Origin: Escherichia phage vB_Eco_OMNI12
Direction: 5' to 3' (one strand)
Sequence record: OL362041.1
DNA: 64,000 bases
The notes under the pieces are model-generated. The model made no database searches and was not told the DNA's origin. It worked only from the letters and a program-made list of their open reading frames with translations. Of this stretch, positions 3,796 through 59,978 are shown in pieces. A program made the position numbers and the translations under genes. How positions within the stretch are numbered: the stretch's first letter is position 1; every line of letters starts with the position of its first letter.

Positions 3796-3811
3796 TCCTA
3801 TTTACTCCAGT

Positions 3812-3833
3812 ATAAGGGGCCGAAGCCCCTTAT
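3812..3833 (-). terminator. Intergenic GC-rich stem-loop (GGGGC-UUCG-GCCCC); terminator or RNA-stability hairpin
   Basis: ataaggggccgaagccccttat immediately after stop of 3836..4429. Confidence 0.45.
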
Positions 3834-3835
3834 CA

Positions 3836-4429
3836 TTATTTCAGAGAATTAATGTATTCCTGAACATCGGCAGAGGTAGTTTCAACCCCAGAAATATTAC
3901 CGTTAAAGGTTTCAACTCGAGCAAGGGTATCTTCAATATCAACCTTAGTCAGTGCTGCAATTTCAACTACATCATCAGCAGTACTAATTCCAAGGGCATT
4001 TGCTGCACGAGTTTCACGGATATATTCCAATTTAACCGCAAGTTCTTGACGAGCATCATCTAACTCAACTACTTTCTTGGCGATTTCAATTCGCATTTCA
4101 GCATAACCGTCAGCCTTAGTAGTCAACTGCTCAGCTGTTCGACGATATAGTAAACCGAGTTTAGCATGCATTGTTACATCTTGGCCTTCGGAAAGAAGTT
4201 TACGAATTTCACGCTCTTTTGATTCGGCCTGTCGATTCTTTTCGATAACAAGTTCACGAATACGTTTTTCTTCGTTAATAGATTTAACAGAAGCAGTTTT
4301 TAGATCTTTAATTTTATCAAGTAGTTTTGCTGCTGCAGCAGTATACTGTTCTTCGACAGATAGATTTTTAGCCATAGCAGAACCAAGTTTAGTGCGAATA
4401 AACTCAACAATTTTCTTCAGTGTGTTCAT
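3836..4429 (-). CDS. Coiled-coil hypothetical protein
   Basis: 197 aa, heptad-rich charged sequence; RBS AAGGAAA upstream of ATG. Confidence 0.6.
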
Positions 4430-4489
4430 AGTATTTCCTTAGGTTAATTGAGATTTAAAATCCGTAGGAGTATAATACTCTATCGTCAA

Positions 4490-4530
4490 ATTATAGGCTC
4501 ATAATATCTCAATCATGAGCCTGCGTAAAC
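4490..4530 (-). promoter_or_regulatory. Early-type promoter candidate (-35 GTTTAC, -10 TATTAT/TATAAT) with internal inverted repeat
   Basis: Minus strand GTTTACGCAGGCTCATGATTGAGATATTATGAGCCTATAAT; inverted repeat AGGCTCAT/ATGAGCCT between the elements. Confidence 0.4.
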
Positions 4531-4794
4531 TTATTTCATATTATTGAAATATTCTTCTGCGATTTCGTCGTTATCATGGTAAACTTTAGAAGACAGTTTA
4601 ACATAACCTTCTGCTGTGAACATATTAATCACAACTTTTACAGTATACCACTGACCGTCTTCATTACCCATTACTGCGTAAGTTTCAAACATCGGATGAT
4701 CAGGACCGATAACTTTAATATCATTCACTGTACGACCGAAATCTTCTGAAACGCATTTCATAAAGAAGTTGAACAGTTCGCCGTAATTATCCAT
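4531..4794 (-). CDS. Hypothetical small protein (start moved to internal Met)
   Basis: ORF track 4531..4914; a promoter-like element lies inside the 5' extension and GGAG RBS precedes MDNYGELFNFF. Confidence 0.5.
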   Translation of the reverse strand: MDNYGELFNFFMKCVSEDFGRTVNDIKVIGPDHPMFETYAVMGNEDGQWYTVKVVINMFTAEGYVKLSSKVYHDNDEIAEEYFNNMK

Positions 4795-4837
4795 TTCATT
4801 CTCCAAGTTGTTTTCTGTATCAGTAGTTGATAGTTGT

Positions 4838-4880
4838 ATAGTACCATGGAAGAACAGAGATGTAAACAGTTTTGTGAAAA
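4838..4880 (-). promoter_or_regulatory. Early-type promoter candidate (-35 GTTTAC, 18-nt spacer, -10 TACTAT, upstream TTTCACAAAA)
   Basis: Minus strand TTTTTCACAAAACTGTTTACATCTCTGTTCTTCCATGGTACTATAC; same architecture as the repeats at 9.4-10.1 kb. Confidence 0.45.
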
Positions 4881-5023
4881 AATTTTTAGGGAATTCTAGG
4901 GCAGGGATGGGCAATTAAAGGATAGGATAATATATTATAAAGGGTATAAACTAAATGATGCCTAGAGAGGTCCAGAAAGGCCTAGATACCAAAAAGCCCT
5001 ATCATTTAGATAGGGATTTAAAA

Positions 5024-5587
5024 TTATTTACCTAGTTTACTTATTATAGCTTCTGCAGCAGCTTTTAGCTTAGATGCAGTGTTAATACGATTTTTAATTT
5101 CAGTATACGCATCGCCAAGAACATCAAGGCTATCAGAATAAACACTTACACTATTGCGTTCGCTATTTGAAATAGAACCTTTAGTTTTGCGGTCAAAATC
5201 GGTGTACACGTCTTGAAGATCGCGGGCTGCCTTCTTTGCATCATCCAATGCATCAAGAGCTTTATTCAAAGCATTAACGTATTTTTTAGTGTCGAACATA
5301 TTCTTAGAAATTTTAACAGGTGCGCGTTCAGGAGTAGCTAACACAGATTTAGGAACCTGAGCGCCAGATGCCAATTTCTTAGAAATTTTGAAAAATGCTT
5401 TATTGAATTTATTTTCTTGACTCATTGTAAAAGAACTATTATCGATGTTGTACATTTCAATAGCTTTAGCTTTCCACTTAAGAAAATCGCCGCGGTCTTT
5501 TGGGTCCAATTGGAAGAATACTTTAGTAAGATCTGCTTCAGATGGTAATTTTGCTGCTTCGGTTAAAAATTCGGCATAGGTTTTCAT
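5024..5587 (-). CDS. Internal-protein-like capsid-packaged protein (N-terminal CTS-like MKTYAEFLTE)
   Basis: 187 aa; N-terminus fits T4 internal-protein capsid targeting consensus; RBS AAGGA upstream. Confidence 0.6.
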   Translation of the reverse strand: MKTYAEFLTEAAKLPSEADLTKVFFQLDPKDRGDFLKWKAKAIEMYNIDNSSFTMSQENKFNKAFFKISKKLASGAQVPKSVLATPERAPVKISKNMFDTKKYVNALNKALDALDDAKKAARDLQDVYTDFDRKTKGSISNSERNSVSVYSDSLDVLGDAYTEIKNRINTASKLKAAAEAIISKLGK

Positions 5588-5675
5588 TTAAAATCCTTGA
5601 AATAATTTATCGGTTGGTTATTAATTATTTATTACTTTGTTACTATCCGTAACAGCGTTATCCGAGTGATTCAAA

Positions 5676-5704
5676 CTAAAAAGCCCCAACCTTTCGGTCG
5701 GGGC
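5676..5704 (-). terminator. Intrinsic terminator (GCCCCGACC-GAAA-GGUUGGGGC followed by UUUUU)
   Basis: Sequence aaaaagccccaacctttcggtcggggctaag; identical copy at 6235-6261. Confidence 0.7.
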
Positions 5705-5712
5705 TAAGAATG

Positions 5713-6186
5713 TCATTTGATTTGTTTAGCAGACCAAATGCGGTCTTTAATAATTTTTTGGATGTCTTCAACATACTCAAGAGAGTGAACATGTGGATTA
5801 TCTTTGAAACTATAAGCACGGGCTAACTTTTGGCCTTCGGTTTTGATTACTAAAAGCTCTTTAAGGATAGCTTCATATTTAGCGATAATTCCTTTAACGA
5901 TATTTTTTTCTTGTGCCGCTTTAGGATCTGCTTTAGGAGCAGGTTTACCCGAAGCCTTTGCAAAAGCAGCGCCAGTAGCAACTAAACTTTTCCAGGCCAT
6001 ACTAACTGCATTTCCCGTAAATCCTTCCGCTTTCATGTCGCGTGCAAACTGGAATCGCGATTCATCAGAAGCATCTTTATAGGAATATTTACCCGCGGCA
6101 ATGGCAGCTTTTGCAACAGCTTGAATTTCGGTGCTAGATGCTTCATTTAACACCGCTTCATTTAAAAATTGAGTATATGATTTCAT
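5713..6186 (-). CDS. Internal-protein-like capsid-packaged protein (N-terminal CTS-like MKSYTQFLNE)
   Basis: ORF track 5713..6363 runs through the terminator and tRNA-like region; true start taken at internal ATG with RBS AGGAAA. Confidence 0.6.
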   Translation of the reverse strand: MKSYTQFLNEAVLNEASSTEIQAVAKAAIAAGKYSYKDASDESRFQFARDMKAEGFTGNAVSMAWKSLVATGAAFAKASGKPAPKADPKAAQEKNIVKGIIAKYEAILKELLVIKTEGQKLARAYSFKDNPHVHSLEYVEDIQKIIKDRIWSAKQIK

Positions 6187-6234
6187 CTTATTTCCTGTTT
6201 TAATTTGTAGATTTAATATACTAATATTTATACC

Positions 6235-6658: not shown

Positions 6659-7324
6659 TTAAAATTTCATTTTTCGACCTTTAAACCATCCTTCTGGAAT
6701 TGGGTCAGTTTTCTTAATACGTTTAGAAACTTTTTCATCTAATGAATGAATCCACATCATACCAAATTGGGAATTCTTTTCACCTTGTTGGTGTTTATTT
6801 TTGGCGTGAGATTCTTTCATTTTATTAATAGTTTCAAGAGTATGGGTCTTACCCAAGAAAGATTTAATATTTAAAAATTTCTCTCTATACTTAGGATTAT
6901 CCCAAAGCTGTTTAAACCTTTCTGAACCCATTTTACGATATTTTTCTTTAAGGTCTGGGTCGTTCTCAAATCTGGTTTTAAAAGCAGCAGCCCCTTTTAA
7001 GGAAGCTTCTTTCTTTTTATCCAAATATTCTTTAGTGTTTAAATGGTCCCAACCACCTTCACCACCTAATTTCAAATTATAAACATCAGGGCGCTTTAAA
7101 AACTCTTCAGTCACAATATTCTTTTCTGACTCAAACATAGAGGTTTTATCGTCAAAGAACTCTAATATTTCTTTAGAGAAATTTTCTATACCATACTTGT
7201 CTTGGGCTCTTTTTAATAATTTACCAGAACCCATATATCCATCATCTAAATTTTCGGTAGAATGAGCGCCTATATAGATTTTATTATTAATTTTATTTGT
7301 TATTTTATAAGTGTAATGGAACAT
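6659..7324 (-). CDS. segB: GIY-YIG homing endonuclease (SegB-like) inside the tRNA cluster
   Basis: 221 aa; N-terminal YKITNKINNKIYIGAH...GYMGSG GIY-YIG motif; same position as T4 segB. Confidence 0.8.
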   Translation of the reverse strand: MFHYTYKITNKINNKIYIGAHSTENLDDGYMGSGKLLKRAQDKYGIENFSKEILEFFDDKTSMFESEKNIVTEEFLKRPDVYNLKLGGEGGWDHLNTKEYLDKKKEASLKGAAAFKTRFENDPDLKEKYRKMGSERFKQLWDNPKYREKFLNIKSFLGKTHTLETINKMKESHAKNKHQQGEKNSQFGMMWIHSLDEKVSKRIKKTDPIPEGWFKGRKMKF

Positions 7325-9420: not shown

Positions 9421-9478
9421 TTTATTCTCCTCAGTAGTAGATAGGGTAATAGTATCACTACCCTATCTAAAAGTAAAC
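9421..9478 (-). promoter_or_regulatory. PeSL-like cassette copy 1: early promoter (-35 GTTTAC 9473-9478, -10 TACTAT 9449-9454) with inverted repeat GATAGGGTA / TACCCTATC
   Basis: Three near-identical ~60 bp elements share GTTTAC-N18-TACTATTACC with a hairpin spanning the -10 region. Confidence 0.55.
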
Positions 9479-25483: not shown

Positions 25484-26142
25484 TGAGTTTACTTAATAAT
25501 AAAGCGGGAGTTATTTCCCGCTTAGCAGATTTTCTTGGTTTTAGAACTAAGAAAAATGATATTTCGGTTATGAATAATCAGCCAGTAGGCGCTGTAACAA
25601 TTTCACAAATAGCAAAAGGTTTTTATGACCCGAATGTAGAATCTGCTATCAATGATGTTAGAAATATGGCAGAGCAACCGGTTGGAGCTGTATTAGTTAA
25701 TATAAGCGGCGTATCTCCTACTGGCGTGCAACAAACCGACTATTGGTCATTTGAAGGAACTGTTACTGATACTTCAGTCAAATCAGGTGACCCAGTTATT
25801 GTTAACATGTTTGGTATTCCAGTTAAAGCTACTAATGGAATGACTTCAATTGAATTTACTAGTGCTGTTAGAACAGCTCTACAGGAAATGGTTGTAAAAT
25901 TTATTGCAATTGATTCATTTGAAGACCATCCTACTATAGGGAATAAAATACAAGTTAAGTATTTAGATAACCAAGAACATATCTTAGAGCAATACTCTGA
26001 TAAAGGAATTACTTTCAAACAAGAAATAATTTCTCCTTCTAAACCCGGGTATGGAACTTGGCAATTATTAGGTGCGCAAACTGTTACGCTAGATAGTCAT
26101 ACACAACCTACAGTATTTTATTATTTTGAGAGAATAGCATGA
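25483..26142 (+). CDS. 11: Baseplate wedge protein gp11 (short tail fiber attachment)
   Basis: ORF track 25465..26142 begins at TTG; ATG start at [14 protein letters not shown] gives 219 aa. Confidence 0.9.
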
Positions 26143-57860: not shown

Positions 57861-57920
57861 TTTGTGTTCCTCATGTTATGTCAGTAAGACTACTATAACA
57901 CAACACGAGGGACTTGTAAA

Positions 57921-59978
57921 CTACATCTTGAACTTTTTAGACATTCCGTTGATGTTAACCAAAGAAGCTAAGATTTGAGAAACTTCGTTTTCCTCTTCTT
58001 TTGATTCTTCTACAAGGAATTGATTAAATCCAGCCATTGGACGAACTTCACCAGTTTCCATTAGATGGTCGCCATCATATACTGATTCTTCTAATTGTTC
58101 AGAAGGAGGAACGATTGTACCTTCGATTAGATACTTGTTATAAGCAGTTTCTTTCATAAAGTAAGTACTTACTTTATTAATCTTCAGTAAAATTCCACGT
58201 GGTAGAATAACTTCAGCTTCTGACGGAAATCCTGATAAATGACCCGGAACGATAACTTTGATTCGCTCAGCTCCTTTAATTACCATACCCACGCTAGTTT
58301 CAGCATCTTCATTAGCATATGTAGAATGACTACCCATATGCATCAAATCTTCTGCATCAACGGAACCTTCTCCTTCACCAGAAAATACTGCGCCGGAATC
58401 ATCTAGAGCCATATAGTTTTTACCATGCTCACCGAAGATATTTGGTTTAAGCGATGTGGATACGAAGTTCTTGAAATAGAACATTTTATTTTCAATGTTA
58501 TGACGCAAAGTTTTAAAGGTAACTTCTTGTCCACGGTAAAGTGTAGTTCCTGGAGGAAGAACTGAACCTTTAGCGAATGCAGAATCAAGCGTCTCAATAT
58601 GTTTAATAGCTCGTTCCATATATTCTTCACGGGTAGAATCTGGTTTACCCAAAAGGAACGAGTTCATTTCAACATATGAATCTGCACAATAATCTTCAAT
58701 TACATCAGATTCAGCTTGAGTTAATCCTTTTGGAGTTACTTCAGTGCTTGCGTATTCATATGCCTGAGCAGCAGATTCATTAATCAATTTATAAATGCCA
58801 TTCATGACAAATTGAATAATAGCTGTCTTTTCATCTGGCGTAGCTTTAGAACCTTTAACCAAATCATTGATAATTTTCTTAATAACATCAAAGCTATTAG
58901 AAATATTAATATCAGCAAGATCGCTTAAAATTTTATCAGTCTTATAATCAAAGAATTCTTTATTCTTTAAATATTCTTGAGAACCTTGATATGTTATATC
59001 GCTCTGTAACTTGATAGATGGATCACGTAAACGTGCATGGGCTAATGCAATATGATTTCGGAAGCTTTCGAGTTCATAATCACTAGATTTAAAACGAGAA
59101 GCGCTTCTCATACCGCCTATAGCTCCTTTGCTGAAGTTTGAACCAATTTGAATAACGCCAGAGTTCATTGGTCCTTCTGCTTTATACACCGGAACTTTAG
59201 ATTCAAACTCTTGATATTTCTTAGCAGCGAAGCTATCACCCTGAAGTGAAGCATCAACAGTAGAATATTGAGCTTGTGCTGCTAATCGACGACTAATTTT
59301 AGTTTTCTGAATAACAGCTTGGTCCGTGCGCTTATCATTTTCTAAAGCAATAGAAGCAGCAACAGCAACAGCTTTAGGAACAGCATTACCTGTTTTAACA
59401 TCTACATAAACATCACCAACCTTTGATTCAACTTTTGTGAATAACTCAGTTGAAATAGGAGGTACACCTGGAATGTCTTCTAAATTGGCATTTTTACGAT
59501 AAACCATAATATATGCGTACTTTTTATCATAATCCCAGATTTCCTTTAAAAGAACATATCGACCTGCTCCTTTAGTACGTACTAAACGGTCAGCAATAAC
59601 TTGCATTTGACGAGCAGCGCCATTTGTTTTACTCTTTAGTACGCGGAATAAGCATGCATCAATTTTATACTGTTTCATTGTTTGAAGAGCAGTATCAAAA
59701 ACAGCGTTAATGACGCCAATTGGATTTCCACCCAAGTTTCTAAGTTTAACCAGTGATAATTTCTCGTTGACACCTATCATTACGATATGCATCATTTTAT
59801 CGCCTGGCTTAACGTTTTTATTCGTATCACCACCAGAGGTGTATGTACAAAATCTAAATCCAGGAAGCACGCTTTCTTCGCCGGCTTGAATAGCAAAAAT
59901 TTGTGGTATTTTATGCTTAGGATTTAAGTTAACAACCGGCGCCGAAGCGCCGTCAAATAATTCTGTAATAAGTTCCAT
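57921..59978 (-). CDS. Alt-family mono-ADP-ribosyltransferase, second tandem paralog
   Basis: 685 aa MELITELFDGASAPVVNLNPKHKIPQIF...; R-S-ExE motifs (TLYRGQ, FVSTSL, EAEVILPRG); N-terminal ~210 aa similar to the adjacent Alt. Confidence 0.85.
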   Translation of the reverse strand: MELITELFDGASAPVVNLNPKHKIPQIFAIQAGEESVLPGFRFCTYTSGGDTNKNVKPGDKMMHIVMIGVNEKLSLVKLRNLGGNPIGVINAVFDTALQTMKQYKIDACLFRVLKSKTNGAARQMQVIADRLVRTKGAGRYVLLKEIWDYDKKYAYIMVYRKNANLEDIPGVPPISTELFTKVESKVGDVYVDVKTGNAVPKAVAVAASIALENDKRTDQAVIQKTKISRRLAAQAQYSTVDASLQGDSFAAKKYQEFESKVPVYKAEGPMNSGVIQIGSNFSKGAIGGMRSASRFKSSDYELESFRNHIALAHARLRDPSIKLQSDITYQGSQEYLKNKEFFDYKTDKILSDLADINISNSFDVIKKIINDLVKGSKATPDEKTAIIQFVMNGIYKLINESAAQAYEYASTEVTPKGLTQAESDVIEDYCADSYVEMNSFLLGKPDSTREEYMERAIKHIETLDSAFAKGSVLPPGTTLYRGQEVTFKTLRHNIENKMFYFKNFVSTSLKPNIFGEHGKNYMALDDSGAVFSGEGEGSVDAEDLMHMGSHSTYANEDAETSVGMVIKGAERIKVIVPGHLSGFPSEAEVILPRGILLKINKVSTYFMKETAYNKYLIEGTIVPPSEQLEESVYDGDHLMETGEVRPMAGFNQFLVEESKEEENEVSQILASLVNINGMSKKFKM

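Follow-up and report, generated by a model that had tools for sequence, protein, structure and literature searches.

Two probable T4-type early promoters at the e.8-e.6 locus of a T4-like phage, the second left in front of e.6 by deletion of e.7

Two minus-strand elements in the early region of Escherichia phage vB_Eco_OMNI12 (OL362041.1) are, very probably, both sigma-70-dependent early promoters of the T4 type; element 1 would be the promoter of e.8 and element 2 the ortholog of the e.7 promoter, with e.7 itself deleted. Promoters of this type are used by the host RNA polymerase in the first minutes of infection and need no phage protein. The stretch analyzed, referred to here as the window, is 64,000 nucleotides long. 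A sequence-only reading of it had noted two minus-strand motifs in which GTTTAC is followed, after an 18-nt spacer, by TACTAT or TATTAT, and both can be read directly: GTTTAC-N18-TACTAT at 4867-4838 (element 1) and GTTTAC-N18-TATTAT at 4530-4501 (element 2). Our case is built on their sequence features, the enrichment of the motif, orthology with T4, the pattern of conservation, covariation in a hairpin, and a deletion junction; promoter activity, transcription start sites, and the role of the hairpin are predicted from geometry and orthology.

In the T4 early consensus, GTTTAC spans positions -36 to -31 and the -10 hexamer spans -12 to -7, with an A-rich UP-like region (-40 to -44) and GT-rich bases 5′ of -12 (Nolan et al. 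2006, PMC1524935). Both elements fit GTTTAC, the 18-nt gap, and TAnnAT at these positions exactly, and both precede, and point toward, minus-strand genes. In the region that was searched, the window matches Tequatrovirus genomes, DalCa (MH992510) and fPS-90 (LR215723) among them, at 99.9% identity, which identifies it by sequence as that of a Tequatrovirus, a T4-like phage. The T4 early cluster occupies the minus strand. By increasing coordinate, it runs from e (1023-1517) through nudE and e.2 to e.5 to an e.6 homolog (3836-4429; 197 aa, identified by profile match to PHROG 1203 and by T4 e.6), which is now the gene 3′ of element 2, and an e.8 homolog (4531-4794; 87 aa, PHROG 2678, T4 e.8 being 264 nt), both of unknown function. 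Beyond e.8 come two extra genes (5024-6190), the tRNA/segB block, ip-type cassettes at 9.4 to 10.1 kb, and then 57B, 57A, and gene 1, all on the minus strand. The gene e.7, which in T4 sits between e.8 and e.6, is missing. In several GenBank records, the e.6 homolog is labeled "host specificity protein"; PHROG 1203 and T4 give its function as unknown, and the label is probably a propagated annotation error.

Terminators lie on either side of the two genes. The intrinsic one at 4997-5015 (minus strand) has a 7-bp stem and a T-run with the tail CTTTTTGG; it ends the gene at 5024-5587, is annotated in fPS-90 and DalCa, and shields element 1 from transcription coming from upstream. In four transcriptome runs of a near-identical phage (Logan contigs), RNA contig depth was about zero between 4883 and 5064, that is, between this terminator and element 1. 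The second terminator, after e.6 at 3805-3841 (minus strand, hairpin at 3812-3833), is likewise annotated in fPS-90 and DalCa and is likely the end of an e.8-e.6 transcription unit. The genes upstream of element 1 differ between the window and T4, and despite this the noncoding spacer of about 120 nt at 4880-4996 (minus strand) is conserved against T4 (locus L003, about 6700-6835). It contains no ORF, and a search of 4300-5100 gave no Rfam match.

Element 1 has every feature expected of a full-strength member of the family, judged by sequence: an A/T-rich UP-like region containing the box TTTCACAAA (4871-4879), the -35 hexamer GTTTAC (4862-4867), and an extended -10 (4838-4846) in which TGg (TG at 4846-4845) precedes TACTAT (4843-4838), all on the minus strand. 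The A-rich upstream sequence AAAATTTTTTCACAAAAC is present together with TGg. From promoter geometry, the e.8 mRNA is predicted to start at A4831, 7 nt past the -10 hexamer. The element lies 37 nt 5′ of the e.8 start codon, with the Shine-Dalgarno sequence GGAG (4801-4804, 6 nt before the ATG) in between; GTTTAC is invariant in 11 aligned relatives, and GGAG is invariant in the alignment as well. In five relatives with an e.8 that is 80 to 87% identical, the hexamers, their N18 spacing, the TG, GGAG, and some of the leader do not vary, whereas the spacer and the sequence upstream of the element have diverged; these five have a terminator hairpin about 25 to 30 nt 5′ of the -35. The element itself has no hairpin (-1.5 kcal/mol, z = +0.73), the nearest being that of the terminator at 4997-5015. 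T4 has the same sequence 5′ of e.8, where its -35/-10 signals are annotated in L13089 (T4 msp1-msp8), and fPS-90 and fPS-2 annotate it as a "predicted early promoter." By sequence, then, element 1 is orthologous to the T4 e.8 promoter.

An ORF call at 4531-4914 begins at a TTG and would run through element 1. The sequence-only reading placed the start instead at an internal Met (MDNYGELF) after GGAG, and this holds: e.8 starts at ATG 4794, six bases past GGAG, because residues 1-87 align to profile positions 1-87 of 87 in PHROG 2678, an in-frame stop lies 8 to 11 codons 5′ of the ATG in six relatives, and T4, DalCa, and fPS-90 all annotate the gene as 264 nt. The longer call is therefore an overextension, and the annotation should read 87 aa from 4794. 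At the other end of the gene, the last codons, AAT AAT ATG AAA TAA (4531-4545, minus strand), show no nucleotide change, even at synonymous sites, in nine of nine distinct relatives, while the remainder of e.8 has diverged, down to 80% amino acid identity, in the same comparison. Going by its sequence, this A/T-rich 3′ end may also serve element 2 as its UP region.

Element 2 begins where e.8 stops. Its GTTTAC (4525-4530, minus strand) abuts the TAA (4533-4531) and is kept in 9 of 10 aligned relatives, L009 having GCGTAC; the -10 hexamer TATTAT (4501-4506, minus strand) is invariant in 10 relatives. There is no TGn, AGA standing at -15 to -13, and what lies upstream is coding sequence, the A/T-rich 3′ end of e.8. 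Element 2 would be expected to be the weaker DNA promoter, since it lacks TGn and an intergenic UP region, and it is the weaker case of the two as a promoter. The sequence-only reading described an inverted repeat between the two hexamers. The repeat is there, AGGCTCAT (4522-4515) and ATGAGCCT (4502-4495), but it is not confined to the spacer: its 3′ arm overlaps the end of the -10 and reaches about +1. The resulting hairpin (4495-4522, minus strand) has 8 bp as a DNA inverted repeat and 11 bp in the RNA fold, at -15.7 kcal/mol (z = -4.69). Across nine distinct homologs, 94.8% of cells are paired, compared to at most 45% in slid controls, and one pair is compensatory, AU in five sequences and GC in four. 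In the T4 record NC_000866, position 70346 (L003 6347), inside the 5′ arm of this hairpin, is an N (GGCTNATG). T4 has the same element directly after the e.8 stop codon, 26 nt before the start codon of e.7, and L13089 lists it as a "putative" -35/-10 pair; we take element 2, on its sequence, to be the ortholog of this putative T4 e.7 promoter. The fPS-2 record lists it as a predicted early promoter, the fPS-90 record does not annotate it as a promoter, and in phage e11/2 its hairpin is annotated as a terminator; the fPS-90 and DalCa records underannotate it.

Matches to the motif exceed chance in the window. GTTTAC-N17-19-TAYTAT was found five times in the 64 kb, against 0.16 expected, and on the minus strand every time; the looser combination of GTTTAC and TAnnAT gave six matches, all within the first 10 kb and each 20 to 70 nt 5′ of a minus-strand gene start. 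Joined to the upstream box, as TTTCACAAA-N3-GTTTAC, the hexamer occurred three times (4862, 9771, and 10102) against 0.02 expected. The 9-mer box alone was not enriched (36 occurrences, 49 expected, with at most one mismatch), and neither was the output of a generic sigma-70 scan (44 sites, 43 expected from shuffled sequence). The signal is thus specific to the T4 consensus, and only the T4-specific pattern discriminates.

The genome-wide consensus search that the sequence-only reading called for used fPS-90 and T4 as whole-genome proxies for the phage of the window. GTTTAC-N17-19-TANNAT fell 31 times on the reverse and 2 times on the forward strand of fPS-90, and 35 and 2 times in T4, the favored strand in both being that of the early genes; the reversed-pattern control gave 3/2 in fPS-90 and 4/0 in T4. 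A Shine-Dalgarno sequence and an ATG lie within about 20 to 45 nt 3′ of 28 of the 30 N18 matches in fPS-90. With some 30 GTTTAC-N18-TAnnAT elements per genome, nearly all on the early strand, and orthologs annotated in T4 (L13089), fPS-2, and fPS-90, the proposal of an early-promoter family is borne out. Promoter features are absent from the T4 reference records NC_000866 and AF158101, and we found no genome-wide T4 start-site map in the literature searched. A weight matrix (67 columns, 27 sites) is overfitted, and its scores serve as ranks only: in leave-one-out scoring, element 1 was second of 128,000 window positions (59 bits), or fifth with its paralogs out of training (37 bits), and element 2 was eleventh in the window (-7.4 bits), a poor fit to the family outside the hexamers.

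The family consensus upstream of the spacer is aAaaaatTTtcA.AaA.ttGTTTAC. The upstream box of element 1 had been read as common to the cassettes at 9.4 to 10.1 kb; two of the three do have TTTCACAAA, but the copy at 9478 lacks it. As a feature specific to the ip cassettes the box is to be rejected, since 9 of 28 intergenic fPS-90 promoters have it. Folding of the fPS-90 promoters separates two structural subclasses. One, with about nine copies, has a strong hairpin around the -10 (at most -13 kcal/mol, z of at most -3) and includes element 2 and the three ip cassettes. The other, without a hairpin, has the upstream box TTTTTCACAAAAC, spacer sequence, and the leader ACAACTATCAACTAC in common and includes element 1 and the fPS-90 copies at 25856, 145289, 161672, and 165318. 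A blast search with the 130 nt upstream of e.8 hits five to eight places per Tequatrovirus genome, one of them the T4 "early promoter 54.4" 5′ of nrdC.10. The fPS-90 promoter at 164783-164812 (L026) is chimeric: it has the spacer of the element 1 subclass, AAGACTGTTCTTCCGTGG, and a leader starting TACCCTATC; this sequence is the 3′ arm of the hairpin in the ip-type subclass, and its 5′ partner is missing. From its sequence, this looks like a past crossover between the two subclasses inside the -10 region.

What stands behind element 2 varies among relatives. In 12 loci, the e.8-e.6 interval takes six arrangements, four with cargo genes unrelated to one another and two that are empty; element 2 is retained at its position in four of the six, in keeping with the portability that the sequence-only reading had suggested. 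Element 2 is followed by e.7 in T4 and L006 (and in fPS-2), by an unrelated gene starting MNIEDKEMQ in L010, L011, L013, and L014, and by another unrelated gene starting MSLYTELNKK in L009. In L007, a different promoter-like element precedes a gene starting MTTLIIWFDE; in L012, e.6 lies directly behind its own hairpin-type promoter; and the window, L008, and L015 have the hybrid described below. The e.7 slot is taken in other T4-like phages by three unrelated small genes, at L007 1603-2275 (MTTLIIWFDE), L009 3262-4180 (MSLYTELNKK), and L010 3262-3795 (MNIEDKEMQ). The TATTAT, GTTTAC, and N18 spacing of element 2 are kept 25 to 30 nt before the start codons of three unrelated cargo genes.

Alignments and a split in the blast matches place the deletion junction at about 4480-4488 (minus strand). 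To its left is an e.7-type leader up to the TTGA of the TTGAGGAG ribosome-binding site; to its right is a fPS-2-type e.6 promoter from just 5′ of its -10, the -35 having been lost. The TATTAT at 4472-4477 (minus strand) is the orphan -10 hexamer of that ancestral promoter, as alignment with the complete e.6 promoters in fPS-2, L010, and L012 shows. The full e.7-less hybrid was found in 89 of 334 blast records, the rest matching only positions 1-58 or 61-116 of the query. Thus, as read from sequence, e.7 was lost by a deletion joining its leader and Shine-Dalgarno sequence to the spacer of the e.6 promoter. Element 2 now stands in front of e.6 because this deletion fell between two neighboring promoter cassettes, and since its ends lie in the e.7 ribosome-binding site and in the e.6 promoter spacer, element 2 is the only complete promoter directly 5′ of e.6. 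An e.6 transcript from it is predicted, from geometry, to start at 4494 (minus strand) with a leader of about 65 nt.

Compared to the T4 promoters of e.8, e.7, and e.6 (L13089 msp1, msp2, and msp3), element 1 is the same except for two spacer bases, its leader and start codon being identical, and element 2 matches the e.7 promoter down to its hairpin and its place directly after the e.8 stop. In T4, by contrast, element 2 is followed by e.7, and e.6 has an intact promoter of its own, the third of the series; in the window, e.7 and the -35 of the e.6 promoter are gone, and the leader of about 65 nt contains the orphan -10.

The published PeSLs (promoter-early stem-loops) of T4-type phages are composites of a stop codon, an A/T-rich region, an early promoter, a stem-loop, a Shine-Dalgarno sequence, and a start codon (Arbiol et al. 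2010, PMC2839356; Comeau et al. 2014, PMC4122927). Element 2 has this composite layout in common with them; both elements fit the PST/T4 consensus TTTACW-N17-TAYWAT and likewise flank genes that vary between close relatives; they border genes inserted, deleted, or replaced. The stem-loop over the -10, as in element 2 with its strong hairpin, is among the commonest layouts described. Element 1 differs in having no adjacent stem-loop, its nearest terminator being about 120 nt upstream. The stems here are also A/T-richer than the GGGG/CCCC stems of the RB49 PeSLs. Promoter and terminator activity, together with mini-circles arising from recombination of neighboring copies, further characterize PeSLs (PMC2839356). 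Recombination between adjacent PeSL promoter cassettes removes the intervening ORF (PMC2839356, PMC4122927), and a comparable crossover between Shine-Dalgarno and -10 boxes has been described (PMC2839356); the deletion in the window likewise lies between adjacent cassettes, its left end in the e.7 Shine-Dalgarno sequence and its right end just 5′ of the next -10. The IP-locus repeats of T-even phages (Repoila et al. 1994, as cited in PMC2839356) have copies in the window at 9478, 9776, and 10107. These share GTTTAC-N18-TACTAT with the present elements, two of them have the TTTCACAAA box of element 1, and all three have the hairpin-around-the-(-10) layout of element 2 with unrelated hairpin sequences; they flank internal-protein genes, whereas the present elements flank the e.8, e.7, and e.6 ORFs of unknown function.

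The idea of a family of portable early promoters is already known, being the published PeSL and T4 early-promoter concept (PMC2839356, PMC4122927); both elements have long been annotated in T4 (L13089), and the finding is an ordinary one, of little significance beyond annotation. The new contributions are small: the junction is placed at 4480-4488, the arrangements are catalogued, and one compensatory change is recorded in the hairpin. Even so, the e.8-e.6 locus is a clean natural example of the PeSL model, with the promoter fixed, the gene behind it swapped or lost, and the junction traceable to within about nine bases, and the interval offers a convenient nonessential site for cassette-exchange tests or cargo insertion in T4-like phages.

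We expect that host sigma-70 polymerase would start at element 1 near A4831, transcribe e.8, and then pass, or be attenuated at, the hairpin of element 2; readthrough would carry on through e.6 to the terminator at about 3805-3841. A second, weaker start near 4494 would come from element 2. The hairpin would fold in readthrough RNA from element 1, where it could attenuate transcription or form a 3′ end that protects the e.8 mRNA. The Logan RNA contigs break at 4814-4843; their ends are unusable as start sites, since this leader is repeated in the genome (for example, at fPS-90 25856).

It is unlikely, in our judgment, that element 2 is mainly an attenuator, a terminator, or an RNA-stabilizing hairpin, with vestigial hexamers and e.6 expressed only by readthrough from element 1. 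Such a role would suit the strong hairpin with its compensatory change, the poor family score outside the hexamers and the missing TGn, and the terminator annotation in e11/2; in addition, a single RNA contig covers 3743 to 4827 without a break, spanning the element, and PeSL stem-loops have been shown to terminate in RB49/phi1 (PMC2839356). However, no U-tract follows the stem (AUAAUUUG), a terminator scan made no call there, and the hexamers and their N18 spacing have been kept across divergent phages, 25 to 30 nt before the start codons of the cargo genes. Contig depth over e.6 was 1.6 to 2.8 times that over e.8 in three of the four runs, weak evidence that points the same way. The two roles are, moreover, compatible, PeSLs being defined as composite promoter-terminators.

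Other assignments concern both elements together. Middle promoters dependent on MotA would also have sigma-70 -10 hexamers, and in T4 the e.6 protein falls in the middle class while its RNA is early (PMC9697503 supplement). But GTTTAC is present at the -35 in place of a TGCTT Mot box at about -30, element 2 having GGCTCA without the invariant CTT; T4 e.8 and e.7 are early as both RNA and protein (PMC9697503 supplement); and among the roughly 60 mapped middle promoters tabulated for T4, not one lies in the interval from 66,724 to 72,593 (PMC2988021). This assignment is very improbable, and on the strength of that gap in the middle-promoter map, we reject it. That both motifs are functionless sigma-70 look-alikes, arising by chance in A/T-rich DNA, hardly merits belief; it would agree with the unenriched generic scan, but the T4-specific pattern is about 30-fold enriched, exclusive to one strand, and always just 5′ of a gene start, and its position is conserved in T4 and in more distant relatives. 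Two early promoters of the T4 type thus remain our preferred reading.

One can also envision, as quite a long shot, that the subclass with a hairpin around the -10 (element 2, the three ip cassettes, and about five more per genome) is a selected two-state device. As DNA, it would be a promoter and a cruciform-prone recombination site that sets cassette boundaries; as RNA, formed in readthrough transcripts only, it would mark these for attenuation or processing, with the result that each cargo gene would be expressed mainly from its own promoter. If this were true, it would have left traces in the AU/GC compensatory change and in the fPS-90 chimeric promoter at 164812.

One further early-promoter-like element was seen within the otherwise late region of the window. 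At 57892-57921 (minus strand), GTTTAC-N18-TATAGT is followed by a Shine-Dalgarno sequence and an ORF starting MKSSLRFLG, probably, by map position, the alt.-3 homolog. This element escapes the TAnnAT pattern and ranks sixth to seventh in the window by weight matrix (14.5 to 14.8 bits).
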